This document shows, piece by piece, positions 544 through 63,368 of a stretch of 64,000 nt of DNA. Source of the stretch: an uncultured Gammaproteobacteria bacterium (lineage in GTDB: Bacteria > Patescibacteriota > Microgenomatia > UBA12405). The position numbers were made by a program, and so were the translations under genes. Location of the stretch: contig CAYPBP010000001.1 of NCBI GenBank assembly GCA_964408995.1, forward strand, positions 10,823 through 74,822. Reading direction: 5' to 3'. The stretch's first letter is position 1, and the number at the start of each line of letters is the position of its first letter. Below the pieces are notes generated by a model. The model was given only the letters and a program-made list of their open reading frames with translations. It was not told where the DNA came from and ran no database searches.

Positions 544-2232
544 ATGAAAAAGAAATTTATCATCTTATTTTTAATAATATTCCTATCAGGAATAATTAGA
601 CTAATCTATTTAGATAGAATCCCTAACGGTATTAACAACGATGAATTACATTTTGTTTTAAACGCTAAGGCAATTTTTTATGGTTTTACCAATATTGAAG
701 GTAATATCAATCCTTTAAAACTTGCTGAAATGTCTAGTTTAATTTTTTCTCCCATCATAGGACTCCTCCCAACCAATCTCTTTACTGCTAAATTACCTTA
801 CGTAATTATTAGCTGCTTGTCTATACTATTAATTTATTTAATAACATTTAAATTAACTAAAAAAAATAATTTAGCCATAATTTCTTCTCTTGTTGCTGGA
901 ATTAATCCATGGAGTATTTATGTTAGTCGCACTTCTTTTGATGCTCCAATCGCTATTTTCTTTTTTTTATTAACTTTTTATCTTTTAAGTTCACTTAAAC
1001 CAAAGTATCTATATTTATCAATAATCACTGGTTATATAGCCTTCAATTCATATATTGGCACTAAAGTTTTACTTCTTCCATTTATTGTTATTAGTTCATA
1101 TTTTTTATGGAAATTTAACAAAAAAAATGGGAAACACTATTTAATAGTTACTTTAGGAGCATTACTAATCACTTTAAACTTTATTTTTACATTAAAAAGT
1201 CAACCTATTGGGAACAGGATAGGTGAAATAATAACTCCTTATTCTCAAAAAATTGTAGATCAAGTAAATCTTGAAAGAAGACAATCAATTCAATCAGAAC
1301 CATTTAAAAAAATATTAACTAATAAATATACTGTTTACACCAGAAAATTTATTGAAAAATATTTATATAATTTTTCTACAGACATTCTCTTCTTAAACGG
1401 TGATCACGCTGCTACTGGTTCACTTTGGAAACATGGTTATTTCTATTATATAGATGCATTTTTAATTATCATGGGAATCATTTATTTGTATATAAAAAGT
1501 CGAAGTTTTTTGTATCTTATCTGTTCCTTTATCCTTCTCTCTCCTGTTCCAGAAGCTATTCGGTCAGACTCTATTCCGTCTTATGTCTTTCATTCATCAT
1601 TTCAATATCCTTACCTTTTTATTCTTATTGCTGCTGGTATTCTCTTATTCTGGCAAACTTTTTCCAATAAATTTTTAAAATTTTTATTAATTGCTATCTA
1701 TTTAATAAGTTTTATCAATTTTATTGATATTTATTTTCTTAAATCTCCTATTTATCAATCAGAGTCTTTTGCTTCTAGTAATAGAATTGTTTCTAATTAT
1801 TTAAAATTAGAAAGTAGTAAAAATAGAGAAATATATGTTATTAGTCGTGAACCAGAAGTATTGTTTAGATCTTATTTATTTTTCTCTAACTCTTACCAAA
1901 AAAATAACTTCCATTTAATTAAAAATATCTATTCCAAATCGAAAGACAATATTTCATTTAAAAATATTCATTTTATAAACAACAATAAATATCTTCCTTC
2001 CGGTAACAACTACACTTTAATTTTTGATACAGATGATTTCGTTTTTAACGAAAAAGAACCAAAACTTTATATAAGTCGCCTCTCAGATGCCGGTAAAATT
2101 TTTTCAATCAACAGGGGATACACTTGCCAAAACTACAGTTTAATTAATTATCCTAATAATTTAAGTATTAAATCTATTAATATAGAAAAACTTGATGAAA
2201 AAAGTTTTTGTGAAAAATATATCACTATTTAA
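544..2232 (+). CDS. polytopic membrane glycosyltransferase, GT-C fold (PMT_2/GT39-like), tandem paralogue 1
   Basis: 562 aa; N-terminal TM helix then loop motif NNDELHF (DE motif typical of PMT/ArnT-type GT-C); many hydrophobic helices; C-terminal soluble domain. Confidence 0.6.
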   Translation: MKKKFIILFLIIFLSGIIRLIYLDRIPNGINNDELHFVLNAKAIFYGFTNIEGNINPLKLAEMSSLIFSPIIGLLPTNLFTAKLPYVIISCLSILLIYLITFKLTKKNNLAIISSLVAGINPWSIYVSRTSFDAPIAIFFFLLTFYLLSSLKPKYLYLSIITGYIAFNSYIGTKVLLLPFIVISSYFLWKFNKKNGKHYLIVTLGALLITLNFIFTLKSQPIGNRIGEIITPYSQKIVDQVNLERRQSIQSEPFKKILTNKYTVYTRKFIEKYLYNFSTDILFLNGDHAATGSLWKHGYFYYIDAFLIIMGIIYLYIKSRSFLYLICSFILLSPVPEAIRSDSIPSYVFHSSFQYPYLFILIAAGILLFWQTFSNKFLKFLLIAIYLISFINFIDIYFLKSPIYQSESFASSNRIVSNYLKLESSKNREIYVISREPEVLFRSYLFFSNSYQKNNFHLIKNIYSKSKDNISFKNIHFINNNKYLPSGNNYTLIFDTDDFVFNEKEPKLYISRLSDAGKIFSINRGYTCQNYSLINYPNNLSIKSINIEKLDEKSFCEKYITI

Positions 2233-2235
2233 ATT

Positions 2236-3957
2236 ATGAAAAAAATATACATATTAAGTTTAATCCTACTTCTAACTTTTTCCTTTTTTCTTTATTTATA
2301 TAAAATTACAATTGTTCCACCATCTATTTTTTCAGATGAAGCCGATGCTAATTATCAAGCCTTTGTTTTTAACAATAGAGGTACCGATTATTTTGGCAAC
2401 AAATTTCCAATTCATTTTCATTCATATTCAGACTGGAGAACTCCATTTTATATCTATTCAATTGCCATTGTTCAAAAGTTTGTTGGACACACTGATTTTG
2501 CTGCTAGATTACCAGCTGCTATTTTTGGCATTTTAAGCGTTTTTGTGTTTTTCTTAATTTTAAAAAGTCTTTTTGAAAATCAAGTATGGGCCTTAATTGG
2601 ATCTTTTTTATTTTCCATTACACCATGGCTGTTCCATTACAGTCGAGTTGCTTTTGAAGCCACAGGCATGCTTCTTTTTTTACTTTTAGGTTTTTATTTT
2701 TGGATAAAATTCATTAATTTAAAAAAGGACAAGTTTTTGTTCTTTTCAGCCATTTCTTTTATTTTAACTGTTTATTTTTATAGCACTGCCAAATTATTTT
2801 TAATATTTATTGGCATAATTTTATTATCTATATGGTTTAAAACTTTAATAAATCTTTCCTTAAAAACAAAATTTATTCTAAGTTTGATTATTTTTATAAT
2901 GACTATTCCTTTTGTAGTAGATACTTTTAATGGTCGTGCTGGTTATCGTTTTTCTTATATAAATATTTTTAGTGATCCAACTATTAGTAAAACAGTTGAT
3001 TATCTTCGGCAAGAAGACTCTGTAATGGTTTATGGTCAACAAATAGGACTTAAGCCAACGTTTATTTCAAAGATTTTTCACAACAAACTATCTCAATGGA
3101 CAGAAATGTTTGTTAAAAATTATTTCTCTGCTTTTTCCACTGAATTTCTATTTCTAAAAGGAGACGGTAATCTTCGTCAAGGAATTCAAACTACAGGTAA
3201 TTTACTCTTTCCAGATTTGTTTTTAATAATTATTGGAATTTCTTCAATTTTTATTAAAAAATCACCAAATCGAAAATTTTATTTTTTCTTTTTGATAAGT
3301 TTGCTTTGTGCCCCAATTCCTTTTTCTTTAACTCGTGATTCAGCTTTTCCTCACGCCACTCGTCTTATTTTAATGTTGCCATTTTTGATTTTATTTTCAA
3401 CCATAGGTCTTAAACAAATTTTTGATATTACTAAATCAAAAATCTTTATTATTTTCATTCTATTTTTATATGTAATTTGTTTTAGTAGATATATTCATCA
3501 ATACTATTTTCATTATCCAAACATTTCAGCTCGTGATTGGCATTATGGAATGAAAGAGGCAGTTATTAAGGCTATAAGTATTAATAAATCAAAAACTTTT
3601 TTTATTAATTCATACGAGCCTTTTATGCCCTTCTTTTTAAATTATAGTGAATATCTACCTTCAAACAAAAATATTTCTCCAGCCAAAGCTTTAGTTTGGG
3701 ATAATAATTCCTTTTTTACTGGTATGCAAGCTGAAAATAAATACTATCTTGGTACTATTGAGTGGTCTAATATGCTTAGTAATATTCCTAATAATTCTCT
3801 TTTTGTTATTCCAGAAAAAGAATTGATTAGAATTAAAAATAGTTTAGAAGACTATAACAAAAATCATCAAACTAAAATTAGTTTTGAACAAATTGATCAA
3901 GTTGAAAAAAAATATACCGAACAAGAAAAAATTTATTTAATCAATTTTAACCAATGA
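2236..3957 (+). CDS. GT-C fold membrane glycosyltransferase (PMT_2/GT39-like), paralogue 2
   Basis: 573 aa; FSDEADANYQAF loop motif after first TM; same architecture as neighbours; 3-nt gap to upstream gene. Confidence 0.6.
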   Translation: MKKIYILSLILLLTFSFFLYLYKITIVPPSIFSDEADANYQAFVFNNRGTDYFGNKFPIHFHSYSDWRTPFYIYSIAIVQKFVGHTDFAARLPAAIFGILSVFVFFLILKSLFENQVWALIGSFLFSITPWLFHYSRVAFEATGMLLFLLLGFYFWIKFINLKKDKFLFFSAISFILTVYFYSTAKLFLIFIGIILLSIWFKTLINLSLKTKFILSLIIFIMTIPFVVDTFNGRAGYRFSYINIFSDPTISKTVDYLRQEDSVMVYGQQIGLKPTFISKIFHNKLSQWTEMFVKNYFSAFSTEFLFLKGDGNLRQGIQTTGNLLFPDLFLIIIGISSIFIKKSPNRKFYFFFLISLLCAPIPFSLTRDSAFPHATRLILMLPFLILFSTIGLKQIFDITKSKIFIIFILFLYVICFSRYIHQYYFHYPNISARDWHYGMKEAVIKAISINKSKTFFINSYEPFMPFFLNYSEYLPSNKNISPAKALVWDNNSFFTGMQAENKYYLGTIEWSNMLSNIPNNSLFVIPEKELIRIKNSLEDYNKNHQTKISFEQIDQVEKKYTEQEKIYLINFNQ

Positions 3958-5633
3958 AGTCTAAAAAAAATATTATTCTTTTAATTTGTCTTTTTCTAAT
4001 TTCCATAATCACTTTTTATCGTCTTTTAAGACCTGGTTATTTTTCTATGATGGATGATATGCATGTTTTTAGATTAGATCAACTAGATAACTGTCTAAAA
4101 GATGGTCAAATACCTTGCAGGGTTATAAAAGATGGGGGAATGGGCTATGGTTACCCTCTCTTTAATTATTACTCACCACTAGCCTATGGTATAGCTGAAT
4201 TTTTTCACTTAATTGGTTTTAGTTTAATTAATAGTCTTAAAATAACCTTTGCTTCTTGTCATCTGATTGGTGTTTTTGGAATGTATTTTTTTGCTAGCAT
4301 TTTTTGGGGAAAACTAGGTGCTTTTATTTCAGCTATTATTTTTCTCTTAGCTCCTTACCAAGCCACCGATAGCTTTGTCAGAGGCGCTCTTTCTGAATCT
4401 TTAGCTATTAATATAATTCCCTGGGTTTTTTATTTTCTAACTAAATTCATTAAAAATTTCAAATTAAAAATTAAAAATTGGATTTTTCTAACCATATCTC
4501 TATCAGCTCTTTTGTTAAGTCACAATCTTACTAGTCTAGCTATTGCTCCAGTTCTTATTGTTTATTCGCTTTTAATTTTATTTAAAAATAAGAACTTAAA
4601 TGCTAAATCAATCTTTAAATTATCTATTCCTGTTTTAATTTCTGTTGGAATTAGTTCTTTCTTTTTATTACCAGCAATCTTTGAAAAAAACTTAGTTACT
4701 GTTGACACTATGACTCAGGGTTATTTTCAATACATTATTCATTTTGCCACTTTAAATCAATTATTTATTTCTCGCTTTTGGGGATTTGGAGCTTCACTTT
4801 GGGGCCCAATTGATGATATGGCTTTTTCAATTGGTCTTGTTCAATGGCTACTTCCTTTAATATCAATTTTATTTTTATTTTTCAAACGAAATCAAATCAA
4901 AACAAAACAATTGGCTTTGGTTATTTTATTTTTCTTTATTTTTCTTTTTTCAGTTTTTCTAACCCACAACAAATCAACTTTTATTTGGCAAATGTTTCCT
5001 CTTATGGCTTTTTACCAATTTCCATGGCGCTTTTTATCAATCGCCATTTTTGCCTCATCTTTTGTTGCTGGATCAATAATCTTATTAGTTAATAAAAAAC
5101 AACAAATATTAACAGTAGTTCTTGTCTCCATAATCACTATTATTTTAAATTTCTCTTATTTCAAAGAAGATATTTGGTTTCCTAATCTAACTGACACTCA
5201 AAAACTATCATCATCAGAAATAATTGCTCAAAGTGGTGCTGGTCTAAAAGATTATTGGCCCAAATATGGTCAAAGTTTTCCAACTTCTTTTGCTCCAGAA
5301 AAACCAATTGTTTCCGATAATATCGTTATAACTAATTACAATAAAAAAAGTAATCAAATTAATTTAACTATTATTGCCAATAGCAATGGAAAAATTACTT
5401 TACCTTTAGTTTATTTTCCAAATTGGCAATTATTTGTAAATAATCAAAAAACTAATTTTGAAATTAATAAAGAGTTAGGGTTAATTGAATTTAATGTAAG
5501 TAAGGGTAACCATTACATTTTGTTAAAATTAACCAACACTCCAATCAGAACAGCAAGCAACTTAATCAGTATTATTAGTCTAGCTTTAGCTATAATTATT
5601 GCCATAAGATCAAATCGAAAAAATGAAAAATAA
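3954..5633 (+). CDS. polytopic membrane protein, probable GT-C glycosyltransferase (divergent member of the array)
   Basis: 559 aa; ATGA start/stop overlap with upstream gene; loop motif MMDDMHVF instead of DE; multiple TM helices; C-terminal soluble domain and terminal TM. Confidence 0.45.
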   Translation: MKSKKNIILLICLFLISIITFYRLLRPGYFSMMDDMHVFRLDQLDNCLKDGQIPCRVIKDGGMGYGYPLFNYYSPLAYGIAEFFHLIGFSLINSLKITFASCHLIGVFGMYFFASIFWGKLGAFISAIIFLLAPYQATDSFVRGALSESLAINIIPWVFYFLTKFIKNFKLKIKNWIFLTISLSALLLSHNLTSLAIAPVLIVYSLLILFKNKNLNAKSIFKLSIPVLISVGISSFFLLPAIFEKNLVTVDTMTQGYFQYIIHFATLNQLFISRFWGFGASLWGPIDDMAFSIGLVQWLLPLISILFLFFKRNQIKTKQLALVILFFFIFLFSVFLTHNKSTFIWQMFPLMAFYQFPWRFLSIAIFASSFVAGSIILLVNKKQQILTVVLVSIITIILNFSYFKEDIWFPNLTDTQKLSSSEIIAQSGAGLKDYWPKYGQSFPTSFAPEKPIVSDNIVITNYNKKSNQINLTIIANSNGKITLPLVYFPNWQLFVNNQKTNFEINKELGLIEFNVSKGNHYILLKLTNTPIRTASNLISIISLALAIIIAIRSNRKNEK

Positions 5634-7326
5634 TTTAAATAAAAATAAAGGTGCCCTGTCAAGGGAAAGGTGGTACGAAGTACCAAAGGGTTTATTTATT
5701 TTAATTACCATAATTGCTTTTTTTCTTCGACTTTGGCAATTAGATAAATTCCCTGTTGGTTTAAATTGGGATGAAGTTAGTCATGGTTATAACGCTTATA
5801 GCCTCTTAAATACAGCTAAAGATCAGTGGGGGAGTAAATTACCTATTTTTAATTTTAGAGCCTATGGTGATTACCCTACTACCCTTAATATGTATCTTTC
5901 AATGCCCTTTATATATTTCTTTGGTTTAAACGAATGGACTACTAGAATTGTCTCCGCTCTTTGTGGTTTTGGGTTAGTTATAATTTCCTATTTTTTAGGA
6001 AAAGAACTATTCCGTAATTCAAAAAATGCTTATTTACTAATGTTATTAGTAGCCTTATCTCCATGGACATTATTTCCATCCAGGGCTGTTTTCCAATCCA
6101 CCGTGGCTCAATTTTTTCTTGTTCTTGGAATTTTATTCTTAATTAAATCAATCAAAAAAATAAATTTTATTTTGCCAGCAGTTTTCTTCACATCAATTTC
6201 TACTTATGCTTATCATAATACTAAAATAGTTGTTCCATTTTTGCTTTTTTTCTACTTTATTATCTTTTTTAAAAACATCAAAGAAAAATTTAATAAACAT
6301 AAAAAACTTTTTACAGCTAGTTTGTTGATTCTTTCTTTTTTACTAATTCCCCAAATAATCAATACTTTCAACAAAGAGGCTCAAGCCAGAAGTCGATGGG
6401 TTTTTGCTATTAACCCAGCTTCGATTAATGAAATAGAAAATAATCGAAATAATTATCAAGGTAATAAATTTATTGCCAAATTAAAATACAATCGAGTAAC
6501 TTTTTTTTCCTCTGTTGTCACCAAAAATTATCTTGGTTTTATTAATCCTAAAATATTATTTTTTGACAGCACTCAAAATTTTCAATTTAACATCCCAAAA
6601 AGTGGTGTTCTTTTTCCAATATGCCTCCCATTCTTTTACATTGGGCTAGTAATACTATTTATAAAATTATTCAAAAAAGATCAGCTGTCATTTTTTCTAT
6701 TATCTTGGTTCCTAATCGGTTTAATTCCAGCAGTTATCACTGTTGGAGATTTTCCAATCATTAGAGGCATGACTATATTACCTCTTCCCCAAATTTTTAT
6801 AATTTATGGTCTTTCCCAAATTATTTCTTTATTAAAAGATAAAAAATTAAAATCAATCTTTATTTCTTTATTTCTATTAATTTTAATAATTCAATCAATT
6901 ATTTATCTTAAAAATTATTTCATTGATTACTCAAAAAACTATTCTAGCTCTTGGCAATATGGTTACAAAGAATCTATTAGCTATATAAAAGAAAATTATC
7001 ATAATTATGATCAAATAATCTTCACCAAGAAATATGGTGAAGCCCATGAATTCATATTATTTTATTGGCCATGGGATCCAAAATCATATCAAACAGATAC
7101 TCGTAAAAATTGGGGTTTTCATACTGATTGGTATTGGGTTAACGCTTTTGATAAATTCAAATTTATAAATGATTGGGAAATAAAAAAAGAAACCGAAAAT
7201 GTTAATCAAAAAACTCTTTTAATAACATCCCCTGACAACTATAATAAAAACAATACTACCTTACTTAAAACTATTTATTTTTTAAACAATTCACCTGCTT
7301 TCGATATTTTAACTATCAATGACTAA
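5623..7326 (+). CDS. GT-C fold membrane glycosyltransferase (PMT_2/GT39-like), paralogue 4; N-terminal tail encoded by a 47-nt GC-rich inserted element
   Basis: 567 aa; NWDEVSHGYNAYS motif shared with paralogues 5 and 6; N-terminal extension KGALSRERWYEVPKG is translated from the 47-nt element. Confidence 0.6.
   Translation: MKNNLNKNKGALSRERWYEVPKGLFILITIIAFFLRLWQLDKFPVGLNWDEVSHGYNAYSLLNTAKDQWGSKLPIFNFRAYGDYPTTLNMYLSMPFIYFFGLNEWTTRIVSALCGFGLVIISYFLGKELFRNSKNAYLLMLLVALSPWTLFPSRAVFQSTVAQFFLVLGILFLIKSIKKINFILPAVFFTSISTYAYHNTKIVVPFLLFFYFIIFFKNIKEKFNKHKKLFTASLLILSFLLIPQIINTFNKEAQARSRWVFAINPASINEIENNRNNYQGNKFIAKLKYNRVTFFSSVVTKNYLGFINPKILFFDSTQNFQFNIPKSGVLFPICLPFFYIGLVILFIKLFKKDQLSFFLLSWFLIGLIPAVITVGDFPIIRGMTILPLPQIFIIYGLSQIISLLKDKKLKSIFISLFLLILIIQSIIYLKNYFIDYSKNYSSSWQYGYKESISYIKENYHNYDQIIFTKKYGEAHEFILFYWPWDPKSYQTDTRKNWGFHTDWYWVNAFDKFKFINDWEIKKETENVNQKTLLITSPDNYNKNNTTLLKTIYFLNNSPAFDILTIND
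5648..5694. repeat. 47-nt GC-rich hairpin element, copy 1 (identical to 58350..58396)
   Basis: aaggtgccctgtcaagggaaaggtggtacgaagtaccaaagggttta; sub-hairpins CCCT-GTCA-AGGG and GGTAC-GAA-GTACC; TA dinucleotide flanks both copies. Confidence 0.85.
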
Positions 7327-8959
7327 AAATATTAAATTTTTTCTAATAATTGTTTTTATAGTTTCTTTTTTTATAAGATTCTATAAAGTAGGGGAATATC
7401 CTCCACTTCTTTGGGATGAGGCCGCACTTGGTTACAATGCTTATTCCATAATAGAAACTGGCAGGGATGAATATGGCAAAATTACCCCAATTATTTTTAA
7501 ATCATTTGGTGACCATAAACCTGGACTTTATGTTTATCTAGCTATTCCTTTTATAAAATTATTTGGGTTAAATGCCATTGCTACCAGACTACCATCAATT
7601 TTACTTGGATCTTTATTGCCAATTTTAATTTATTTTTTAATCAAAGAGATTAATCAAAAAAGCCATAAAACAGCCATTATTGCGGCTATTATTACAAGCC
7701 TTAACCCTTATTCCATTCATTTTTCCAAAGGTGCTTGGGAAACTAATGTTTTAACTTTTGAATTAGTGTTAGCCTCATATTTTTTCTTCAAATATATTAA
7801 TAAAAAAATAAATAAATATTTGTTATTTTCTGCTATCACTTTTGGTTTAACTCTTTTTACCTATCAAGCTGGCAAAATGATAAGTTTGTTTTTAATTATC
7901 ATTTTGTTCTTAACAAATTTACAAATAGTAAAAATAAAAAATATAAAACCATTATTTTTGAATTTTGTTTTACCTCTCTTTATTTTTTCTATCCCTATTA
8001 TTTACGGAATATTTTTTTCCAATAATACTAATCGTTTAAAAGTTGTTAGTTTATTTTCTTATCCCAGATCAGAAATTGAAACTCAAACTATAATCAACGA
8101 ATCAAGTAAAATTAATTATCAAATATTCTACAATCAATCAATTTTCTTTTTAAGAAATTTTTCTTCTCGTTATCTAAATCATTTTTCTCCTAGATTTTTA
8201 GCTTTTGAAGGAGATTGGCAAAGCCCACGTCACTCAGCTCCATACGTTGGCGTTATACTTTATCCAAGTCTTTTGTTTTTAATCATCGGAATTTTCTTTG
8301 CCTTAAGTCGTCAAAAAATAGACAAACTTAATCTTTTCTTTTTCCTTTGGCTTTTAGTAGCCCCAATACCAGCGGCTCTAACCAGAGATTCCCTTCAAGC
8401 AGTTAGGGTTATGTCTCTTTCCATTCCTTTAATTTATTTTATTTCTCTTGGAATTTATGTTGTCATTAATAAATATAAAAACATATTTTTATATAGTCTA
8501 ATTATTGGTGCTTATTTAATTTCTTTTATTTACTATAGTGATCTTTATTTAAATCATATGGTTAAAAAAAGTCCAGATGATTTTCTTTATGGCTACAAAC
8601 AATCTATGGATTATTTAATAAAAAATAAGAATAATTTTAATCAAATAATTATGAGTGATTATTATGGTCAAGCTTATATCTATTACCTTTTTTATTCAAA
8701 ATATCCACCTAAAATTTATCAACAACAAGCCAAATTAACAGAAAATTTATCTGGTGATACAGGAAGAGTTGAAAAAATAGACAATATTAAATTTACTACC
8801 CCAGATTTTAATGTAATTAAAGATCAACCATCTTCTCTGGCTGTTTTTAATTATAATGAAATATACCGTCAAACAATTGACAAGTCAGATAATTTTAAAA
8901 ACTTTTTACCACTAAGTCCAATAAATAATATTTCCACTTTTTATGGCTACCAAAATTAA
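7319..8959 (+). CDS. GT-C fold membrane glycosyltransferase (PMT_2/GT39-like), paralogue 5
   Basis: 546 aa; LWDEAALGYNAYS motif; polytopic; overlaps upstream stop by 8 nt. Confidence 0.6.
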   Translation: MTKNIKFFLIIVFIVSFFIRFYKVGEYPPLLWDEAALGYNAYSIIETGRDEYGKITPIIFKSFGDHKPGLYVYLAIPFIKLFGLNAIATRLPSILLGSLLPILIYFLIKEINQKSHKTAIIAAIITSLNPYSIHFSKGAWETNVLTFELVLASYFFFKYINKKINKYLLFSAITFGLTLFTYQAGKMISLFLIIILFLTNLQIVKIKNIKPLFLNFVLPLFIFSIPIIYGIFFSNNTNRLKVVSLFSYPRSEIETQTIINESSKINYQIFYNQSIFFLRNFSSRYLNHFSPRFLAFEGDWQSPRHSAPYVGVILYPSLLFLIIGIFFALSRQKIDKLNLFFFLWLLVAPIPAALTRDSLQAVRVMSLSIPLIYFISLGIYVVINKYKNIFLYSLIIGAYLISFIYYSDLYLNHMVKKSPDDFLYGYKQSMDYLIKNKNNFNQIIMSDYYGQAYIYYLFYSKYPPKIYQQQAKLTENLSGDTGRVEKIDNIKFTTPDFNVIKDQPSSLAVFNYNEIYRQTIDKSDNFKNFLPLSPINNISTFYGYQN

Positions 8960-10565
8960 CAAAATACCATTAATAATTATTCTTCTAATTGCCTTTCTAA
9001 TTAGATTTATTAATTTAAACACTACTCCAGCCCTAAACCCTGATGAGGCCGCTCTTGGTTACAATGCTTATTCTCTTTTAGAAACTGGTAAAGACGAACA
9101 TGGAGACCCTTGGCCACTCCATTTTAAGTCTTTTGGTGATTTCAAACCGGGTGGCTATGTTTATTTAGCCTTACCTTTCGTTAAAATATTAGGGCTCACA
9201 CCATTGGCCGTCAGATTGCCAAATTTAATCTTAGCAGTATTAACCATCCTTTTTTTATATAAATTAATATTACTTCTCTCAAAATCTAACGCTCTAGCTC
9301 TCTTAAGCTCTATCGTTTTATGTTTATCTCCTTGGCACATTCATTTTAGTCGTGGAGCTTGGGAATCTTCGGCCGCTCTTTCCTTTATTGTTATTGGTAC
9401 CTATTTCTTTTTCAAATCAATTAAAGAAAAGTTTTTATTAAATTTTAGTATTTTTGTTATTCTTTACATCCTGTCTTTGTACATTTATCATTCAGCTCGT
9501 CTTATCGCTCCACTTTTAGCCTTTACCTTAGTTATTCTTTATTTTAAATTTTTGTTAACAAAACTTCCAAAAATATTAATCCCTATCATTTTTGGAATTA
9601 TTCTAGCCATACCAGTGGCTTTTTCATTTTTAAATAATGGTGGGACAAAGCGTCTCGGTGGAGTCGGGCTAACTGCCGATCAAGGTCCAATTTGGAGAGC
9701 TAATGAGCTTATAAACCATCATAATAATGTTAAGTTAATCAACAGGGGAATGCATAATAAAAGAATTTTATACTTAGTATCTTGGGCTCAAAAATATACT
9801 TCCCACTTTGATTTAAATTTTCTAGCAATTAATGGAGATGAAGTTCCTAGATCAAAAGTTCCTGAAATGGGCCAAATACATTTAATAGAATTACCATTTT
9901 TAATATTAGGTATTATATTTTTATTAAAAACTATTTTGTTTAATAAAAAATCCAAGATTTTTATCTTAGCCTTTTTATTAATATCTCCAATTGCCTCATC
10001 CTTAACTTTTCAAGCTCCATCAGCTCTTAGGGCCTTAGCCATGGTTATACCTATATCCATTTTAATTGCTAGTGGTATTTATTATTTCTTTACTTTATTT
10101 AAAAATAAAAATCTATTTAAGATAATTACTCTTATTTTTATAATCATTTATAGTTATTTTGTTGCCTATTATTTAGACGCTTATTTTGTCCATTATCCTA
10201 AAAGATATCCTTTTGCTTGGCAATATGGTTTTGATCAACTAGTTCCTTATCTAGAGCAAGAAAAAGATAAGTACAGTCAAATCTATGTAACTAATAAATA
10301 CGATCAACCTTATATCCTCTTTTTATTCTATTCTCAATATCCACCACAACTTATTCAATCACAAATAAAATTAACTCCACCAGATAATTTTGGTTTTTCT
10401 ACTGTTTTAGATTACAATAAATATCATTTTGAAAAAATTAATTGGGATAATATTCCATTAAATTCATTGGTTGTAACCAGTGATGAAGAAGCTCTTTTAA
10501 ATCCTTATAAAGTTATAAATTTCCCAAATGGCCAACCAGGGTTTAAAATATATTCAAAACAATGA
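8943..10565 (+). CDS. GT-C fold membrane glycosyltransferase (PMT_2/GT39-like), paralogue 6
   Basis: 540 aa; NPDEAALGYNAYS motif, clearly paralogous to 7319..8959; polytopic. Confidence 0.6.
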   Translation: MATKINKIPLIIILLIAFLIRFINLNTTPALNPDEAALGYNAYSLLETGKDEHGDPWPLHFKSFGDFKPGGYVYLALPFVKILGLTPLAVRLPNLILAVLTILFLYKLILLLSKSNALALLSSIVLCLSPWHIHFSRGAWESSAALSFIVIGTYFFFKSIKEKFLLNFSIFVILYILSLYIYHSARLIAPLLAFTLVILYFKFLLTKLPKILIPIIFGIILAIPVAFSFLNNGGTKRLGGVGLTADQGPIWRANELINHHNNVKLINRGMHNKRILYLVSWAQKYTSHFDLNFLAINGDEVPRSKVPEMGQIHLIELPFLILGIIFLLKTILFNKKSKIFILAFLLISPIASSLTFQAPSALRALAMVIPISILIASGIYYFFTLFKNKNLFKIITLIFIIIYSYFVAYYLDAYFVHYPKRYPFAWQYGFDQLVPYLEQEKDKYSQIYVTNKYDQPYILFLFYSQYPPQLIQSQIKLTPPDNFGFSTVLDYNKYHFEKINWDNIPLNSLVVTSDEEALLNPYKVINFPNGQPGFKIYSKQ

Positions 10566-27409: not shown

Positions 27410-27775
27410 ATGAATTTTACTGATCTAAATATTTGGAAAGAAAGTAATAAATTAGCTATTACCATATATAAAATAACTAAAAATTTTCCAAAATCGGAAA
27501 TTTTTGGAATAACATCCCAACTACAAAGGGCTTCTACTTCTATTTCTGCTAATATTGCTGAAGGTTTCGGAAGGAAAGGCAATAAAGAATTTATCCAATT
27601 TTTATATCAAGCAAAAGGTTCTCTCTATGAAACTCAAAATTTTATACTTTTCAGCCGAGATATAGGTTATATTGAAAAATCAGAATCAGAAATTTTATTA
27701 AATCAATACGAATCATTAGCTAAAATGTTAAATTCCTTTATTACTAAGGTAAAATATAATAATGAAAACAAATAA
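27410..27775 (+). CDS. four-helix-bundle protein (PF05635-like, '23S rRNA intervening-sequence protein' family), copy 1
   Basis: 121 aa; LNIWKESNKLAITIYKIT...SQLQRASTSISANIAEGFGR motifs; sits between wzm- and wzt-like genes. Confidence 0.65.
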   Translation: MNFTDLNIWKESNKLAITIYKITKNFPKSEIFGITSQLQRASTSISANIAEGFGRKGNKEFIQFLYQAKGSLYETQNFILFSRDIGYIEKSESEILLNQYESLAKMLNSFITKVKYNNENK

Positions 27776-28553
27776 GGTGTCTAGCGAACCAGCGAACCAG
27801 CGAACCAGCGAACCAGACCAAATCGTTATACGATTTGGTCATGTTACCAAAGATTTTAGCAAACTCTCTCATAAAACCTTCAAAGAATTTCTTCCCGCTC
27901 TAATCAAAGGCGAAAAAACAGCTGAAAGTTTTACTGCTCTAAAAGACATTAGCTTTGAAATTAAAAAAGGGGAGACAGTTGGCATAATTGGTCCAAATGG
28001 CAGTGGCAAATCAACTATTCTAAAGCTCATTGCCGGCGTTATGTGGCCAACATCCGGAACAGTGCAAGTCAAAGGTAAAATCTCTCCTCTAATCGAGCTT
28101 GGTGCCGGCATGCATCCAGAATTAACTGGCAGTGAAAATATTTACTTAAACGGCGCCATTCTTGGTCTTTCTCAAAAAGAAATTGCGACCAATTACAAAT
28201 CTATTGTCGATTTTGCCGAAATTTGGGAATTTATCGATCAACCAATCAAACATTATTCTTCAGGTATGTATATGCGCCTTGCTTTTGCCATTGCCATTCA
28301 TGTCCACCCCGAAATTCTAATAGTCGACGAAATTCTATCTGTTGGTGATGCTGCTTTCCAAGACAAATGTTTCAAAAAGATGGAAGAATTTCAAAAATCA
28401 AAAGACATTACCATTATTTTTGTTACCCATGCTTTAGCTCAAGTCGAAAAATTCTGCACCCGCGCCATTTACATCAACAACCATCAAATCCAGTACGACG
28501 GCGATACTCAAAAAGCAACTAAAAAATATTTAGACGATCTAGAAAACAAATAA
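27762..28553 (+). CDS. ABC transporter ATP-binding protein (Wzt/TagH-like polysaccharide export ATPase)
   Basis: Walker A GPNGSGKST, signature YSSGM, Walker B ILIVDE; 5' end contains perfect octamer repeat. Confidence 0.75.
   Translation: MKTNKVSSEPANQRTSEPDQIVIRFGHVTKDFSKLSHKTFKEFLPALIKGEKTAESFTALKDISFEIKKGETVGIIGPNGSGKSTILKLIAGVMWPTSGTVQVKGKISPLIELGAGMHPELTGSENIYLNGAILGLSQKEIATNYKSIVDFAEIWEFIDQPIKHYSSGMYMRLAFAIAIHVHPEILIVDEILSVGDAAFQDKCFKKMEEFQKSKDITIIFVTHALAQVEKFCTRAIYINNHQIQYDGDTQKATKKYLDDLENK
27783..27819. repeat. perfect tandem octanucleotide repeat (agcgaacc) x4 plus partial copy, inside codons 8-19 of wzt-like gene
   Basis: ctagcgaaccagcgaaccagcgaaccagcgaaccagacc; translated SSEPANQRTSEPDQ. 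Confidence 0.9.
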
Positions 28554-29397: not shown

Positions 29398-29403
29398 ACT
29401 AAA

Positions 29404-29431
29404 ATAATACTAGAGTAATTGGTCTTGTCAA
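29404..29431 (-). promoter_or_regulatory. sigma70-like promoter TTGACA-16-TATTAT, 6 nt upstream of Bro-N copy 1 start
   Basis: minus-strand ttcggttttagtcaTTGACAagaccaattactctagTATTATtttagtATG; about 60 nt conserved with 51841..51888. Confidence 0.45.
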
Positions 29432-29652
29432 TGACTAAAACCGAAGAAAACACGAATGTAAATAAATAATAAAATTTAAAAAAATACATTAGTACTATAT
29501 GTTAAACTCATTAATCATCTAACAAAAGCGATTCAATAATACTCATCTTATCCCCAAATTTCAACTCAAGCAATTGTGCAAGAAAATGTGTATAAATGCT
29601 TGAAACCAAGCAATTATTCAATTTTTGTGAAACTGTGTTAAAATTATAATTA

Positions 29653-50410: not shown

Positions 50411-50440
50411 CTCTAAAGTTCTAACCATCTAAAGTTCTAT
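50411..50440. repeat. degenerate period-8 array (tctaaagt/tctaacca/tctaaagt/tctattat) immediately upstream of ugd
   Basis: ctctaaagttctaaccatctaaagttctat; GC hairpin cccgcaactgcggg just upstream at 50385..50398. Confidence 0.6.
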
Positions 50441-50459
50441 TATGCTTTATAATATTCCT

Positions 50460-51755: not shown

Positions 51756-51854
51756 AAATAAAAACCTCTTTGTCTCACTTCATTCGACATCTCCCCTTAA
51801 AAAAGGGAGATAAAAAAATAATTTACAGATTTGGGTTTTATTCGGTTTTAGTCA

Positions 51855-51882
51855 TTGACAAGACTAACTAGTCGAGTATTAT
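51855..51882 (+). promoter_or_regulatory. sigma70-like promoter TTGACA-16-TATTAT, 6 nt upstream of RhuM-like gene start
   Basis: ttcggttttagtcaTTGACAagactaactagtcgagTATTATtttgatATG; conserved with the minus-strand copy at 29404..29448. Confidence 0.45.
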
Positions 51883-51888
51883 TTTGAT

Positions 51889-57714: not shown

Positions 57715-58938
57715 ATGAAAATCTTATTATTAAGCCACATTTTTCCACCTGCAATTGATGGTGGTTCAAAAGTAATTTATAAACTTGGTCAATATTTTGA
57801 ATCTCAAGACCATCAAACCCTTTATCTTTCTTCCAATTGCACCAGCACCGACGATTTTGTTAAAGCAAAAAATTATCGACAATCTAACAGCAACGATCCA
57901 ACCTCTCTTTTAAAACTTCCTGTCTATCACCATCTTCGTCGTCCACTAAAATTTTTAAACTTATTTTTAAAAAAAGATCTATTAAAAGTTTTTCAAAAAG
58001 GCCCCATTTTTAAATTTATTCCATTTATAAAAGCCACTTATCAAGTAATAAAATTCAAACCCGATTTAATTGTTGCCGGACCACTTCCCACCACCATAGT
58101 CCTCTACGCCAGATTTTTCAAATTTATTTCTAAAGCTCTAACACTCAAAAGTTCTAAAGTTCTAATCAATTCTTCTTTCCATCAAACTGATCAAGACTTT
58201 CAACAAAAATCCTTAATCAAATCTCTTCAAAATGCTGATTATCTTTGGACCTTAACTCAATTTGAAACTGATTACTTTATTAAAAATTTTAAAATTAACC
58301 CTCAAAAAATAATCCTCGCCGGCAATGGCATAGATAATAACTTCTTAGTAAGGTGCCCTGTCAAGGGAAAGGTGGTACGAAGTACCAAAGGGTTTAATAT
58401 CTTGTTTATAGGAAGCCTTGCTGCCCATAAACGCGTAGATCTTCTTATCAAATCTTTTTCTAAAGTTCTAAAGCTCTACAGCTCTAACCCTCTAACTTTA
58501 ACCATCGCTGGTCAAAAAACCCTCTTTTATCCCCAAATACAAAAAACCATAAAGTCTCTTCCCAAAAATATTCAAAAACAAATAAAATTTATTTTTAATT
58601 TTAAAGAATCAGATTTAGCCAAATTAATCGATAATTGCGATATATTAGTTTTACCTTCAGTCCAAGAAAGTTTTGGTTTAGTTCTCGTCGAAGCCTGGGC
58701 CAGACAAAAACCAGTTATTACTAGTGACATTCCATCATTGAAAGAATTAGTTTCTAAGACTAAAGGGGGATTAACTTTTAAAACTGATAACCAAAAAGAT
58801 CTTAGTCAAACAATTATTAAACTAATTAACAACCAGAAACTTTGCCACCAATTGGGCCAAAATGCTTTTGAATATGTTAAAACTAATTATACTTGGAAAA
58901 AAGTAGGAGAAAAAATATGTCAAAAAATATTATCTTAA
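57715..58938 (+). CDS. glycosyltransferase family 4 (GT-B) carrying the 47-nt element and two period-8 arrays in-frame
   Basis: NGIDNNF ... FNILFIGSLAAHKRVDLL ... SVQESFGLVLVEAWARQKPVITSD motifs; 15 inserted residues VRCPVKGKVVRSTKG encoded by the element. Confidence 0.6.
   Translation: MKILLLSHIFPPAIDGGSKVIYKLGQYFESQDHQTLYLSSNCTSTDDFVKAKNYRQSNSNDPTSLLKLPVYHHLRRPLKFLNLFLKKDLLKVFQKGPIFKFIPFIKATYQVIKFKPDLIVAGPLPTTIVLYARFFKFISKALTLKSSKVLINSSFHQTDQDFQQKSLIKSLQNADYLWTLTQFETDYFIKNFKINPQKIILAGNGIDNNFLVRCPVKGKVVRSTKGFNILFIGSLAAHKRVDLLIKSFSKVLKLYSSNPLTLTIAGQKTLFYPQIQKTIKSLPKNIQKQIKFIFNFKESDLAKLIDNCDILVLPSVQESFGLVLVEAWARQKPVITSDIPSLKELVSKTKGGLTFKTDNQKDLSQTIIKLINNQKLCHQLGQNAFEYVKTNYTWKKVGEKICQKILS
58129..58168. 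repeat. degenerate period-8 array (tctaaagc/tctaacac/tcaaaagt/tctaaagt/tctaatca) inside GT4 coding sequence
   Basis: translated FISKALTLKSSKVLINSS. Confidence 0.65.
58350..58396. repeat. 47-nt GC-rich hairpin element, copy 2 (identical to 5648..5694), translated in a different frame
   Basis: aaggtgccctgtcaagggaaaggtggtacgaagtaccaaagggttta. Confidence 0.85.
58459..58498. repeat. degenerate period-8 array (tctaaagt/tctaaagc/tctacagc/tctaaccc/tctaactt) inside GT4 coding sequence
   Basis: translated SKVLKLYSSNPLTL; the 'tctaa' unit is read in all three frames. Confidence 0.65.
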
Positions 58939-59372
58939 TTATTACCCCATTATTAATAATCGCCACTATTTTAATTTGGCGTTTATTTTTTTATATGCCA
59001 TCAGCAGAATTTATTAATCTGAATATTAAAGATCAAAAATATAAAATCGAATTAGCCAAAACTTCTGCTCAAAAAATCAAAGGTTTATCAAAAAGAGAAA
59101 AACTTTGTAAAAATTGTGGCATGCTTTTTATTTTTGCTTTTGAAACCGAACTTCCTTTTTGGATGAAAGACACTCTGATTCCTCTTGACATTATTTGGCT
59201 TAATAAAGATGGTAAAGTAGTTGATATTCAAACAGCCACCACTACCAGCTCTCAAAAAATTTATAAAAATAAATCAAAAGCTCAATATGTTTTAGAACTA
59301 AATGCCACTGATTCTCAAAAATTGAATTTAAATATCGACGATATTATTCAATTACCCAATTTCAATGACTAA
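58917..59372 (+). CDS. DUF192-family protein
   Basis: CGMLFIFAFETELPFWMKDTLIPLDIIWLNKDGKVVDI signature; RBS aggaga before ATG 58917 (track start 58893 is TTG). Confidence 0.55.
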   Translation: MSKNIILIITPLLIIATILIWRLFFYMPSAEFINLNIKDQKYKIELAKTSAQKIKGLSKREKLCKNCGMLFIFAFETELPFWMKDTLIPLDIIWLNKDGKVVDIQTATTTSSQKIYKNKSKAQYVLELNATDSQKLNLNIDDIIQLPNFND

Positions 59373-60384
59373 AAAATCCAGAGCACCAGAGCACCAGAGC
59401 ACCAGAGCACCAAATTTCTCCATAATCATTCCCAACTACAACGGTGCTCAATTTATAGCTGATTGTTTGAACTCACTTTATCAATCAATTCAAAATTGTC
59501 CCAATTCAGAATTTGAAATAATTCTTGTCGACAATGGATCTAAAGATAATAGTATTGAAATTTTTCAAAAAATAATTCCCAAAAATATTCACTATAAAAT
59601 TTTATTGAATTCTCAAAATAAAGGTTTTGCCCCAGCTGTTAATCAAGGCATAAATAAAGCCAAATATGAATATGTTGTCTTACTAAATAATGACTTAACT
59701 ATGGAACCTGATTGGTTTCAATTAATTTCTAATCAAATAAAAATTAATAAAGATCCAAAAATCACTACTTTCTTTGGCACAGTTTTGACTAAAGATGGCT
59801 CTAAATTTGAATCCCAAGGTTTAGAGTTTTTCTATTCTGGCAAAGCTCAAAATATCTCCAATGGCAAAGATTTTACCCCATCTACGACCTACGACCTACA
59901 ATCTACTAAACTAGTTTGGGGTGCTTCCGCCGCTCTAGTTGTTTACAAAAAAGAAACTCTAGAAAAAATTGGCCTCTTTGATGAAGATTTTTTTGCCTAT
60001 GAAGAAGATGTTGATTTGGCCCTGCGACTCCACAATTTAAACTATAAAACTCTTTATATCCCCGCTGCCATTTCCTATCATATAGGAGGCGGAACCAGCA
60101 ACAAAATGGGGATTTTTAGATACAAAATGGATGCTAAAAATTGGATTTACATTATAATCAAAAACTTTTCCAAAAAAGAAATAATAACTAATTTACCCAA
60201 AATTATAGAAGAACGATTAAGAAACTTATCTGGTTTAAGTAAGCAAACTATTCGTATTTATAAACTGAAATCAATTTTCTATTTACCATACATATTATTT
60301 TCTACTTACGGTGAAGTTTTAGTTAAACTACCAAAAATGTTTAACAAACGTAAATCTATCAAAAAACTTGATAGACTATGCTAA
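59365..60384 (+). CDS. glycosyltransferase family 2 with octamer repeat in its 5' end
   Basis: FSIIIPNYNGAQF...VDNGSKDNS...VLLNNDL motifs; N-terminal SRAPEHQSTRAP encoded by repeat. Confidence 0.65.
   Translation: MTKKSRAPEHQSTRAPNFSIIIPNYNGAQFIADCLNSLYQSIQNCPNSEFEIILVDNGSKDNSIEIFQKIIPKNIHYKILLNSQNKGFAPAVNQGINKAKYEYVVLLNNDLTMEPDWFQLISNQIKINKDPKITTFFGTVLTKDGSKFESQGLEFFYSGKAQNISNGKDFTPSTTYDLQSTKLVWGASAALVVYKKETLEKIGLFDEDFFAYEEDVDLALRLHNLNYKTLYIPAAISYHIGGGTSNKMGIFRYKMDAKNWIYIIIKNFSKKEIITNLPKIIEERLRNLSGLSKQTIRIYKLKSIFYLPYILFSTYGEVLVKLPKMFNKRKSIKKLDRLC
59378..59411. repeat. perfect tandem octanucleotide repeat (ccagagca) x4, codons 5-16 of GT2 gene
   Basis: ccagagcaccagagcaccagagcaccagagcacc. 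Confidence 0.9.
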
Positions 60385-61580: not shown

Positions 61581-62244
61581 CTATTACCAAAATAATTCAA
61601 ACAAATTTGGATGGGGGACTGATAATAAAATTTCTGATTACAAAATAAAAGAAATAATTCCTCATATTTCTGGTAAAAAAGTTCTTGATATAGGTTGTGG
61701 CCCAGGTCATTTGGTTGATATTTTGTCTAAAAAAGGTTTTGATTCTTTTGGTATCGATTCAACCCCTAGTTTTATTAACTATGCCAAAAAAAATAAAAAA
61801 GGTACTTTTAAAATTGGTAACGCCAATAAAACTCAATTTAAATCAAAAGAATTTGATACTGTAATTTTAAAAAGTGTTTTAGAACATTTAAAAGACGACA
61901 AAATAGCCCTAAAAGAAGCTCTAAGAATAGGTAAAAAAATAATCATAATTGTCCCTCAAAAAACTAGTTTTAAATTAAAAAAAAGAGGTTTAATTTACTC
62001 TCATTATCAAGACAAAAGTCATCTTAGAAACTACACCAAAAAATCATTAACCAAATTGATTAACTCTTGTAACGCTAAAATAATTAAATTAATCCCAATT
62101 GAACCCTTACCAATCAAATCCATCTTTTTTGAATTATTTATAGCTCCTAAATTACTAAAAAGAATAATCACAAAAATTTTCTTTTTAATTTTTAAACAAG
62201 AAAAATATTATTTAGAACTTTTAGTTATAATTAAAGCATGTTAA
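61555..62244 (+). CDS. class I SAM-dependent methyltransferase
   Basis: VLDIGCGPGHLVDIL motif I; about 100 aa later VLEHL. Confidence 0.6.
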   Translation: MSMSKPLTDYYQNNSNKFGWGTDNKISDYKIKEIIPHISGKKVLDIGCGPGHLVDILSKKGFDSFGIDSTPSFINYAKKNKKGTFKIGNANKTQFKSKEFDTVILKSVLEHLKDDKIALKEALRIGKKIIIIVPQKTSFKLKKRGLIYSHYQDKSHLRNYTKKSLTKLINSCNAKIIKLIPIEPLPIKSIFFELFIAPKLLKRIITKIFFLIFKQEKYYLELLVIIKAC

Positions 62245-63368
62245 TTGGTATTGATGGTAACGAAGCTAATATTAAAAACCGAGTTGGTGTTGGTCAATAT
62301 GCTTTTAATTTATTATTAAACATTTATTCCCTGGACAAAAAAAATAAATATATTATTTATTTAAAAGAAGAAGCCCAAGATGATCTGCCAAAAGCTAATC
62401 CTAACTGGCAATACAAAGTTTTTGGACCGAAAAAACTTTGGACTAAAATAGCCCTACCAATTAAATTGTTTACCCAATCAGATAAATTAGATTTATTCTA
62501 TTCACCTAGCCATTATTCACCATCTCTTTGCCCTTGTCCCACTGTTCCTACTATTCACGATTTAGGTTATCTTCAATCTCAAGATCAATTCACTAAAAAA
62601 GATTTATATCAATTAATCAATTGGACCGAAAAATCTCTCAAAAAATCCAGTCATATTATTACTGTTTCTAATTTTTCCAAAAACGAAATTGAAAAAATCT
62701 ACAAAATAAATCCTAAAAAAATTACTATTGCCTATAACGGAGTTAGTTCGCCACCAAAGATTGATACAAAAGATCAACAAAAAATCCTTTCTCTATACAA
62801 TCTTCAATCTAAAAACTATTATCTCTACTTAGGTACTCTTAAACCCAACAAAAACCTCCCATTTTTAATCAAATCTTTTTCTGAATTTATAAAAAAATCT
62901 AAAGCTCTAAAGATCCAAAGTTCTAACGTTCTAGTTATTGCTGGTAAAAAAGGCTGGCTCTTTGATGAAATTTTTAGTTGTGTCAAACAAGAAGGAATCG
63001 AAAACAATATTGTTTTCACTGACTTTATTGATGAATCTCAAAAGTGGACTTTGTATCAAAATGCTAAAGCTTTGATTATGCCAAGTCTTTATGAAGGTTT
63101 TGGTATTCCTGTTATTGAAGCCATGAAAGTAAACACTCCAGTAATTTCAAGTAATATTATCCCTTTAAAAGAAGTCCTTCAAAACAATGCTTTCTATTTC
63201 AACCCAACTAAAGAAAAAGAACTGATCGATCAATTAATCAAGTTTGAAAAACTTAATTCTTTAGGCATCAAAAAAATAACTGATAAAGCCAAGCTTAGGG
63301 CTGATTTTTTTAGCTGGCAAAACACTGCCAAATCAGTCATTTCTGTTTTTGAAAAATTTAAAAATTAA
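62238..63368 (+). CDS. glycosyltransferase family 4 (GT-B)
   Basis: MLIGIDGNEAN...; SLYEGFGIPVIEAMKVNTPVISSN. Confidence 0.6.
   Translation: MLIGIDGNEANIKNRVGVGQYAFNLLLNIYSLDKKNKYIIYLKEEAQDDLPKANPNWQYKVFGPKKLWTKIALPIKLFTQSDKLDLFYSPSHYSPSLCPCPTVPTIHDLGYLQSQDQFTKKDLYQLINWTEKSLKKSSHIITVSNFSKNEIEKIYKINPKKITIAYNGVSSPPKIDTKDQQKILSLYNLQSKNYYLYLGTLKPNKNLPFLIKSFSEFIKKSKALKIQSSNVLVIAGKKGWLFDEIFSCVKQEGIENNIVFTDFIDESQKWTLYQNAKALIMPSLYEGFGIPVIEAMKVNTPVISSNIIPLKEVLQNNAFYFNPTKEKELIDQLIKFEKLNSLGIKKITDKAKLRADFFSWQNTAKSVISVFEKFKN
62898..62935. repeat. degenerate period-8 array (tctaaagc/tctaaaga/tccaaagt/tctaacgt/tctag) inside GT4 coding sequence
   Basis: translated SKALKIQSSNVLV; same position in the GT4 fold as the array at 58459. 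Confidence 0.65.

Follow-up and report, generated by a model that had tools for sequence, protein, structure and literature searches.

Intrastrand triplex motifs of Escherichia coli were reportedly described as early as 2000 by Hoyne et al. The BoxC/PIT/TMECO repeats of this bacterium are class II purine-motif intrastrand triplex repeats (Holder et al. 2015, PMC4666352). The TMECO pattern, CCCTCNCCC-N3-6-GGGNGAGGG-N3-GGGNGAGGG, is represented in strain MG1655 by 23 near-identical copies, which are always intergenic, show neither strand bias nor a link to transposons, occasionally form inverted doublets and are associated with local genome instability; the motif is found in proteobacterial genomes and forms a triplex in vitro, as seen by circular dichroism and nuclear magnetic resonance spectroscopy (PMC4666352). 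Here, we describe a 47-nt sequence, AAGGTGCCCTGTCAAGGGAAAGGTGGTACGAAGTACCAAAGGGTTTA, that occurs twice in a 64-kb stretch of contig CAYPBP010000001.1 (referred to as the window in the following), in each case within a glycosyltransferase gene. The two copies probably belong to the most conserved subfamily, termed type A, of repeats that are dispersed in Shapirobacteria, members of the Patescibacteria or Candidate Phyla Radiation (CPR), and that share the class II intrastrand-triplex layout. Comparison with other loci shows a dispersed family of structured DNA repeats with a gain by insertion in at least one gene, tolerance in frame and covariation between three sequence blocks. Gene boundaries, the termini of proteins, linkers between domains and variable rRNA loops are the places where its members accumulate.

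Both window copies lie on the plus strand (Table 1), agree in 47 of 47 nt and stand out as a GC-rich island from a window with a GC content of 27.7%. The chance expectation for a repeat of this length is 0.00 (100 shuffles), and no further copy with up to three mismatches is present in the window. Identity ends sharply on both sides, the preceding base being a in copy 1 and t in copy 2 and the following base t and a, respectively. Within its open reading frame (ORF), copy 1 is read as GALSRERWYEVPKGL (residues 10–24), while copy 2, which is read in another frame, gives VRCPVKGKVVRSTKG (residues 212–226); if read through, the peptides spanning the copies are GALSRERWYEVPKG and CPVKGKVVRSTKGF. 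A preliminary description of this DNA had pointed out the identical repeat, its two reading frames and two short hairpins, CCCT/AGGG and GGTAC/GTACC, and all of this was borne out. The folding energy, which it had proposed to examine, is ordinary (z −0.5 to −2.0 against shuffles). As the thermodynamics cannot be distinguished from shuffled sequence, the evidence for structure has to come from comparison. Other details did not survive: the TA dinucleotides thought to bracket both copies are out of register (copy 1 reads TA before AAGG, copy 2 reads gT before AAGG), no consistent direct repeat indicative of a TA target-site duplication surrounds 34 related copies, and the insert, described as 45 nt, amounts to a net 48 nt relative to orthologous DNA.

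The term double hairpin, which had been used for the repeat, covers only a part of its architecture. Both hairpins exist, yet the rule that unites the family is a pyrimidine block, a purine block and a mirrored purine block. This emerged from about 0.5 Mb of fetched loci (designated by L numbers) that had been chosen for containing an element, in which a search for the loop core yielded about 60 distinct variants of a superfamily with lengths of 39–70 nt. On one strand, these follow a common plan: an A-rich lead-in precedes the pyrimidine block, which is joined by a GTCA loop to its purine complement; a short T-loop or a hairpin of variable sequence and length leads on to the mirrored purine block and TTT. 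The smallest members, with 39–40 nt, have the form Y-GTCA-R-TTT-mirror(R)-TTT, as exemplified by AAGTCTCCCCT-GTCA-AGGGGAGA-TTT-AGAGGGG-TTTA and by AAGTCTCCCCTGTCAAGGGGAGATTTAGAGGGGTTTA. In 38 distinct hairpins, the GTCA loop closed by a T-A pair is unchanged.

Pairing in hairpin 1 reaches 83% compared to 69.7% in shuffles, and 63 cells with double changes compare with 28.9 in shuffles; neither value was attained in any of 500 shuffles. Seven of nine pairs covary, and all slid registers perform worse. Since the variants are related by descent, these covariation counts are not independent events. The pyrimidine/purine polarity of the pairs is nearly absolute (C-G 179, T-A 96, G-C 1, A-T 0), G.A mismatches cluster at positions 5 and 7, and T.G wobbles on the plus strand outnumber C.A by 9 to 2. 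The two purine blocks mirror each other at 84 of 91 positions when in register, whereas shifted registers give 55% at most. When the tails were permuted among six conservative core types, the observed mirror score was reached in 27 of 20000 trials, and in a register-free test the own mirror ranked first in nine of 16 types, with exceptions consisting mostly of T opposite A. Across 31 distinct variants, 197 of 248 triads (79%) are canonical (C-G*G 127, T-A*T 36 and T-A*A 34), to which 19 G-A*A triads can be added. Hairpin 2 likewise displays compensatory changes, GGTAC/GTACC being replaced by GGTGC/GCACC and GCCC/GGGC by GCCT/AGGC, besides base-paired extensions. In the window, the type A blocks GTGCCCT, AGGGAAA and AAAGGGT contain no mirror mismatch and two Watson–Crick mismatches, both G.A. 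A generic scan of the window for triplex blocks, which is noisy in A/T-rich DNA, yielded a single decayed intergenic candidate for a third superfamily member. It reads TCTCCCTT-tttt-AAGGGGAGAT-gtcgaatgaagtgagac-AAAGAGGTTTTT, with a loop mutated from GTCA and a shortened tail, and is akin to members in L014 and L040. At about 5040–5150 in L005, and at the same locus in L033, two different members stand head to head about 12 nt apart (TTAAAAAAAATG).

The superfamily and the window copies thus share with BoxC/PIT/TMECO the consecutive arrangement of a C-rich block, its G-rich complement and a G-rich mirror on one strand, i. e. the three-block layout of the class II purine motif, and the triads are those of a purine motif with a homopurine duplex strand. 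Further likenesses are the short loops, with minimal forms of 34–37 nt, the presence of multiple copies with very high identity, the absence of strand bias and of an associated transposon, and the occasional inverted doublets, here those of L005 and L033. In E. coli, 'A mm' copies of TMECO read CCCTCGCCCC-TTT-GGGGAGAGGG-TTA-GGGTGAGGGG (PMC4666352). Like the CPR repeats, these have a G.A*A triad at a distance of five positions from loop 1 and place T opposite A in the third block. The blocks TCGCCCC, GGGGAGA and AGAGGGG in L014 come close to CTCGCCCC, GGGGAGAGGG and GGGTGAGGGG of TMECO, for which both descent and convergence are possible. In contrast to TMECO, whose strictly intergenic location in MG1655 is a reported property of the motif and not part of its structural definition, 27 of 65 CPR copies lie in ORFs and one occupies a loop of 16S rRNA, in hosts that are AT-rich CPR bacteria instead of Proteobacteria. 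Moreover, loop 1 is GTCA in all CPR subfamilies, the pyrimidine block of the window copies is degenerate, and loop 2 is often a covarying hairpin of about 10–33 nt. The published ITxF criteria allow stems of 6–15 nt and loops of 1–6 nt (PMC4666352). Members without hairpin 2 fall within these loop limits (loop 1 of 4 nt, loop 2 of 0–6 nt), whereas type A and other members with a hairpin as loop exceed them and would be missed by such a search. While the sequence family appears to be undescribed, as had been suggested, its class is known from BoxC/PIT/TMECO (PMC4666352). New in the CPR family are the invariant GTCA loop, the hairpin that replaces loop 2, the residence in coding and rRNA sequences and the invariance of type A across species.

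As the preliminary description had supposed, copies related to the pair do exist elsewhere. A scan of one genome per species for the central 23-mer found nine loci, eight of them in contigs titled Candidatus Shapirobacteria, and a metagenome scan with a gapped pattern added 31 loci. The ninth locus, L008 (CAYXLS010000005.1), is titled 'uncultured Gammaproteobacteria'; its groES–groEL context is that of the Shapirobacteria locus L004, with which the groES–element–groEL segment aligns over its full length, and L008 probably represents a mis-binned CPR contig. The exact 43-nt core GTGCCCTGTCAAGGGAAAGGTGGTACGAAGTACCAAAGGGTTT is embedded in 21 distinct flank contexts, and type A is carried by at least seven species-level Shapirobacteria genomes as well as by many metagenome contigs, with ten sequence variants of the subfamily seen. 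The search patterns fixed 23–24 positions, so that invariance is informative only for the remaining positions, which are also nearly constant. At five loci from at least three species, type A directly follows the groES stop codon ahead of groEL. At this site the element differs between three species at merely two positions, both in hairpin 2, while the coding flanks differ at many. Other copies are located between two tRNA-Met genes and beside tRNA-Ile in an rRNA operon, antisense to these genes, and upstream of tRNA-Tyr. The 16S rRNA gene (422–1186) of L012, a metagenomic relative, is enlarged by 80 nt at the tip of helix 6 (V1), and a type A element lies at about 521–570 within this insertion. 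Perfect identity of the window copies had been taken to imply recent mobility. Type A is nearly invariant across species, even at the orthologous groES–groEL site with its diverged coding flanks, and therefore the identity of the pair is not by itself a sign of a recent event.

Host gene 1 encodes a GT-C/PMT-like (GT39) glycosyltransferase, in which the Pfam PMT match begins at residue 27, past the insert; the element follows the start codon and precedes the first transmembrane segment. Opposite to it, a gap of 16 aa appears in all five tandem paralogues, and all 79 listed orthologues (about 50–78% identity) lack the element and begin with MKNKKYLLFIL. Conserved protein sequence, which the preliminary description had named as a refuting alternative, does not account for the segment. 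At the DNA level, the orthologous loci L044 and L045 are empty sites in each of which 48 nt are missing: the interval from the shared ATGAAAAATAA to TTTATTT measures 57 nt in the window and 9 nt in both of them. The copy in gene 1 is hence a lineage-specific true insertion with a net gain of 48 nt. No ATG, GTG or TTG is encountered between the element and the conserved codons of the first transmembrane segment, and without such a start codon the element is most likely translated as part of the protein. An A-rich AAAATAAA-type sequence is often found 5' of the element, and the empty site has such a sequence as well. As an observation on the surroundings, gene 1 is the fourth of six tandem GT-C/PMT-like paralogues with 20–30% mutual identity and overlapping starts and stops, whose synteny is kept in L044.

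Host gene 2 codes for a GT4 glycosyltransferase, and its element constitutes the linker between the two Rossmann-like domains of the protein, N-terminal and C-terminal. Across 120 orthologues, both the length and the sequence of this linker are hypervariable. It comprises 16 aa in gene 2 versus an unrelated 13 aa in the closest orthologue (L043, 80% identity). At identical GT4 junctions between FL and N[IL]LF, the loci L041, L046 and L047 harbor three other subfamilies in the same frame. Accordingly, one linker site in five orthologous GT4 genes is filled by four different subfamilies or, in L043, by none. The recurrent occupation would be compatible with either a recurrent target or replacement in place. 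The claim of in-frame insertion into two genes thus stands for the GT-C gene, whereas the GT4 copy replaces or constitutes the linker and is not a simple addition. Degenerate arrays with a period of 8 nt (TCTAAAGN) were also observed at six places in the window, within and between genes. In another GT4 gene, one such array is part of the sequence for the inter-domain linker and encodes SKALKIQSSN; similar SK.LK.. linkers exist in GT4 orthologues. These arrays appear to be a second kind of repeat at the hot spots used by the element.

Overall, 27 of 65 unique copies (those of the window and of three publicly called L041 genes included) lie within ORFs of at least 90 aa, 16 in sense and 11 in antisense orientation. 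By position, ten are internal, 13 are at most 15 codons away from the start and four are near the C-terminus. These counts are upper bounds, because some N-terminal cases reflect over-extension of an ORF through the stop-free element, as in L005, where a promoter-like box and an ATG are located downstream of it. Five of the six phases are in use, three in sense and two in antisense, and none of the observed copies contains a stop codon in any sense-orientation frame. Of 38 intergenic copies, 12 have an upstream gene on the same strand whose stop codon precedes the start of the copy by no more than 10 nt. Four copies in 21 kb of L041 affect publicly called genes, namely the C-terminus of metK (antisense), the N-terminus of a GT2 gene and two GT4 linkers. 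Density differs considerably, with six copies in 14 kb of L014 versus two clear copies, besides the decayed candidate, in the 64 kb of the window.

Several other systems invite comparison. Rickettsia palindromic elements (RPEs; Ogata et al. 2000) are simple palindromes of about 100–150 bp that are known only from Rickettsia. The preliminary description had likened the repeat to them as a selfish in-frame element. Like RPEs, the CPR repeats occur in frame in protein genes, in RNA genes and between genes, occupy tolerant surface segments and reside in reduced AT-rich hosts; an in-frame insert relative to orthologues is present in the GT-C gene and in the GT4 linker. The likeness holds insofar as the elements are dispersed and read through in two unrelated genes, with relatives in intergenic regions and a 16S loop, but they are better classified as BoxC-type. 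Their 45–48 nt, the pyrimidine/purine/mirror plan and the occurrence in Patescibacteria, with nearly all matches in contigs titled Candidatus Shapirobacteria, set them apart from the 100–150-bp Rickettsia family, a distinction that is drawn by size and architecture, not by sequence comparison. Double-hairpin elements have also been reported for Allomyces by Paquin et al. in 2000. Together with the GC clusters of yeast mitochondria (see PMC4478555), these are short GC-rich folded elements in very AT-rich genomes that populate intergenic and variable rRNA regions, occasionally enter genes in frame and fall into subfamilies with a common fold. Unlike the CPR repeats, they are organellar, have other sequences and adopt hairpin or double-hairpin folds devoid of a mirrored third block, and yeast M-type clusters have defined target duplications, none of which were found for the CPR element.

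Repetitive extragenic palindromic sequences (REPs) and bacterial interspersed mosaic elements (BIMEs), which are associated with RAYT transposases, and miniature inverted-repeat transposable elements (MITEs) such as the Correia elements are likewise short, structured, non-autonomous, dispersed and conserved in lineages, and are often situated just past stop codons. REPs are extragenic by definition. The CPR element is not, and it lacks a GTAG-type 5' tetranucleotide. Inspection of the gene tables of individual loci, which involved neither a dedicated search nor a scan of whole genomes, brought no RAYT- or transposase-like gene to notice. Neither terminal inverted repeats nor a target-site duplication as in MITEs were found, in that no direct repeat recurs in 34 contexts or at the empty site, and the ends of the element, (A)AAG(T/C)... 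and ...GGGTTT, display only A/T complementarity. Rfam 15 gave no match at gathering level in the window and chance-level hits only around the element at E values up to 10, and no tRNA or tmRNA genes were found in the window. Other candidate functions were rejected. With TTGACA as the reverse complement of the loop and TATAAT following many copies, a promoter was considered; it is at odds with the spacing of the −10 box, which ranges between 0 and 14 nt on the downstream side and amounts to some 26 nt or more for the other strand. Start codons at no consistent distance speak against mimicry of a Shine–Dalgarno or anti-Shine–Dalgarno sequence, and the use of different frames against a protein module. 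A G-quadruplex would fit only the G-rich variants without hairpin, several members having just two G-tracts. Three scans of viral contigs, for types A, B and C, did not find any sign of carriage by phages.

If the window copies are members of a BoxC-like triplex family, both would simply be translated, adding about 16 residues to the cytoplasmic N-terminal tail of one protein and forming the inter-domain linker of the other. The encoded peptides could then be passengers in tolerant segments, with no role in the host protein implied. A fold consisting of a hairpin and a reverse-Hoogsteen third strand, with hairpin 2 as the connecting loop, might arise only in passing, while DNA is single-stranded in the course of replication, repair or transcription. 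This folded form may be what a process of spreading or maintenance recognizes at the DNA level, and such a recognition would explain the three-way covariation and the invariant loop. It is possible, if somewhat unlikely, that an intrastrand DNA triplex is indeed formed in vivo and read by structure-specific machinery that inserts, replaces or preserves the elements. This reading builds on the three-way covariation and the constant loop, which persist in dozens of variants, even within ORFs and at the one GT4 linker site with its four subfamilies.

Several points weigh against the assignment to a triplex family. The triplex has been assigned from sequence, and type A is its weakest candidate, with five canonical triads, two G.A*A positions and a second loop of 16 nt. 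Only about 6–16 independent block types have been sampled. The loci examined revealed neither a transposase, for which there was no dedicated search, nor a target duplication or terminal inverted repeats. The protein collection searched does not contain the exact 567-aa protein encoded by host gene 1, and translation through the element is inferred. For TMECO, in vivo footprinting detected no stable triplex (PMC4666352). Finally, type A is low in copy number and, across three species, hardly changes at an orthologous site; a selected host function would account for this no less well than selfish spread.

This last point leads to an alternative in which the repeat is a cis-acting signal maintained by the host, through purifying selection or molecular drive, for recombination, repair or replication or in the manner of a DNA-uptake signal, these bacteria being dependent on competence, with the copies in genes being tolerated side effects. 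The two differences at groES–groEL amid diverged flanks, the 43-nt core that is identical in 21 contexts from many samples, and the few copies of type A, often placed beside loci expected to be highly expressed (groESL, tRNA genes, the rRNA operon), would all suit such a signal, as would the constant GTCA loop and the single GT4 linker site at which four subfamilies obey the structural rules. We nevertheless regard it as unlikely, given that copies occur in both orientations, in ORFs, in a variable loop of 16S rRNA and at arbitrary distances from promoters, and that their density is uneven, with 4–6 copies per 14–21 kb in L014 and L041 but two in the window. The absence of the GT-C copy from all listed orthologues implies that no conserved site-specific function is lost there. 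Uptake signals, furthermore, normally arise by point mutation and not by insertion of 48 nt.

Quite improbable is a structured RNA element, i. e. a double hairpin that acts post-transcriptionally as a REP-like mRNA stabilizer, processing site or regulator and is passively carried in coding regions. Compensatory changes and variable base-paired extensions of hairpin 2 are typical of functional RNA stems, and the excess of T.G wobbles over C.A on the plus strand, the twelve intergenic copies that begin shortly past a stop codon and a moderate excess of sense orientation would agree with such an element. Yet Rfam gives no match at gathering or permissive thresholds, the folding energy is ordinary, and Watson–Crick pairing of RNA leaves both the pyrimidine/purine polarity and the mirrored third block unexplained. 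Eleven of 27 in-ORF copies are antisense, and so are copies at tRNA and rRNA genes. Moreover, purine-motif triplexes are reported to be unable to form in RNA (PMC4666352). A purely local event without any family behind it, be it gene conversion, chance duplication, an assembly artefact or a selected peptide module, could be imagined from the window with its only two, 100% identical copies; this is refuted by more than 40 independent contigs from different projects with the same core in unrelated contexts, by the unrelated peptides that result from different frames of the window copies and by the five of six phases used by the other in-ORF copies.

Table 1. Positions of the repeat copies, their host genes and further features of the window (L numbers denote comparison loci with their own numbering).
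Feature	Position	Strand	Basis or detail
Copy 1, type A	5648..5694	+	exact repeat and block parse
Copy 1, pyrimidine-side block GTGCCCT	5651-5657	+	block parse
Copy 1, loop GTCA	5658-5661	+	block parse
Copy 1, purine block AGGGAAA	5662-5668	+	block parse
Copy 1, linker GGT	5669-5671	+	block parse
Copy 1, hairpin 2 GGTAC-GAA-GTACC	5672-5684	+	block parse
Copy 1, mirrored purine block AAAGGGT	5685-5691	+	block parse
Copy 1, TTTA	5692-5694	+	block parse
Copy 2, type A	58350..58396	+	exact repeat and block parse
Copy 2, GTGCCCT	58353-58359	+	block parse
Copy 2, GTCA	58360-58363	+	block parse
Copy 2, AGGGAAA	58364-58370	+	block parse
Copy 2, hairpin 2	58374-58386	+	block parse
Copy 2, AAAGGGT	58387-58393	+	block parse
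Host gene 1, GT-C/PMT-like (GT39) glycosyltransferase, fourth of six tandem paralogues	5623..7326	+	Pfam PMT
Host gene 2, GT4 glycosyltransferase	57715..58938	+	Pfam Glyco_transf_4 (residues 15-207), Glycos_transf_1 (residues 223-385)
Gene 1 region that cannot be aligned to orthologous DNA	5634..5690	+	alignment; net excess 48 nt, borders ambiguous in A/T-rich flanks
Candidate third superfamily member, decayed, intergenic	51763..51812	-	generic pyrimidine/purine/mirror scan and sequence reading; weak assignment
GT4 linker elements	L041 10679; L046 10627; L047 2914; window 58350; L043 empty
Six tandem GT-C/PMT-like paralogues	544-10565
Degenerate 8-nt-period arrays	58128-58165; 58459-58495; 60413-60436; 62893-62933; 9273-9329; 50412-50456
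GT4 gene with array in its linker	62238..63368
Perfect 8-nt tandem repeat, x4.2	27783-27816		after start of ORF 27762..28553
Perfect 8-nt tandem repeat, x4.4	59378-59412		after start of ORF 59365..60384 (GT2 gene)
Inverted repeat, 442 nt	28956-29397 vs 52925-53366		86% complementary
Inverted repeat, 71 nt	29387-29457 vs 51829-51899		86% complementary

The window contains further repeats. Perfect 8-nt tandem repeats follow the starts of two ORFs, with AGCGAACC in 4.2 units in one and CCAGAGCA in 4.4 units in the other, a GT2 gene in the glycosyltransferase cluster. Since the unit is not a multiple of three, the reading frame would change with a unit added or lost, and these start-proximal repeats may mediate phase variation by slipped-strand events. 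In L041, the orthologous GT2 N-terminus has a triplex-type element at the place of the CCAGAGCA repeat. The inverted repeats of 442 and 71 nt correspond to paralogues that are encoded on opposite strands and whose upstream regions are likewise shared.

BoxC-type motifs have been known for decades, while proof of a function and of the cellular relevance of the triplex is lacking. The co-evolution of three blocks in the CPR family provides comparative evidence that hairpin models leave unexplained. If the proposed recognition of the folded form is true, these repeats would be the first known case of a mobile or maintained DNA signal that depends on a triplex, and evolution would for the first time have supplied evidence for the biological reality of BoxC-type triplexes. 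The near-invariance of type A at an orthologous site requires selection or an active homogenizing process. Tolerance of these motifs inside proteins and 16S rRNA extends the concept of selfish DNA in coding genes to Patescibacteria. As a practical consequence, the element gives rise to odd peptide inserts, can lengthen ORF calls and may mislead the annotation and binning of CPR genomes and their 16S analysis.

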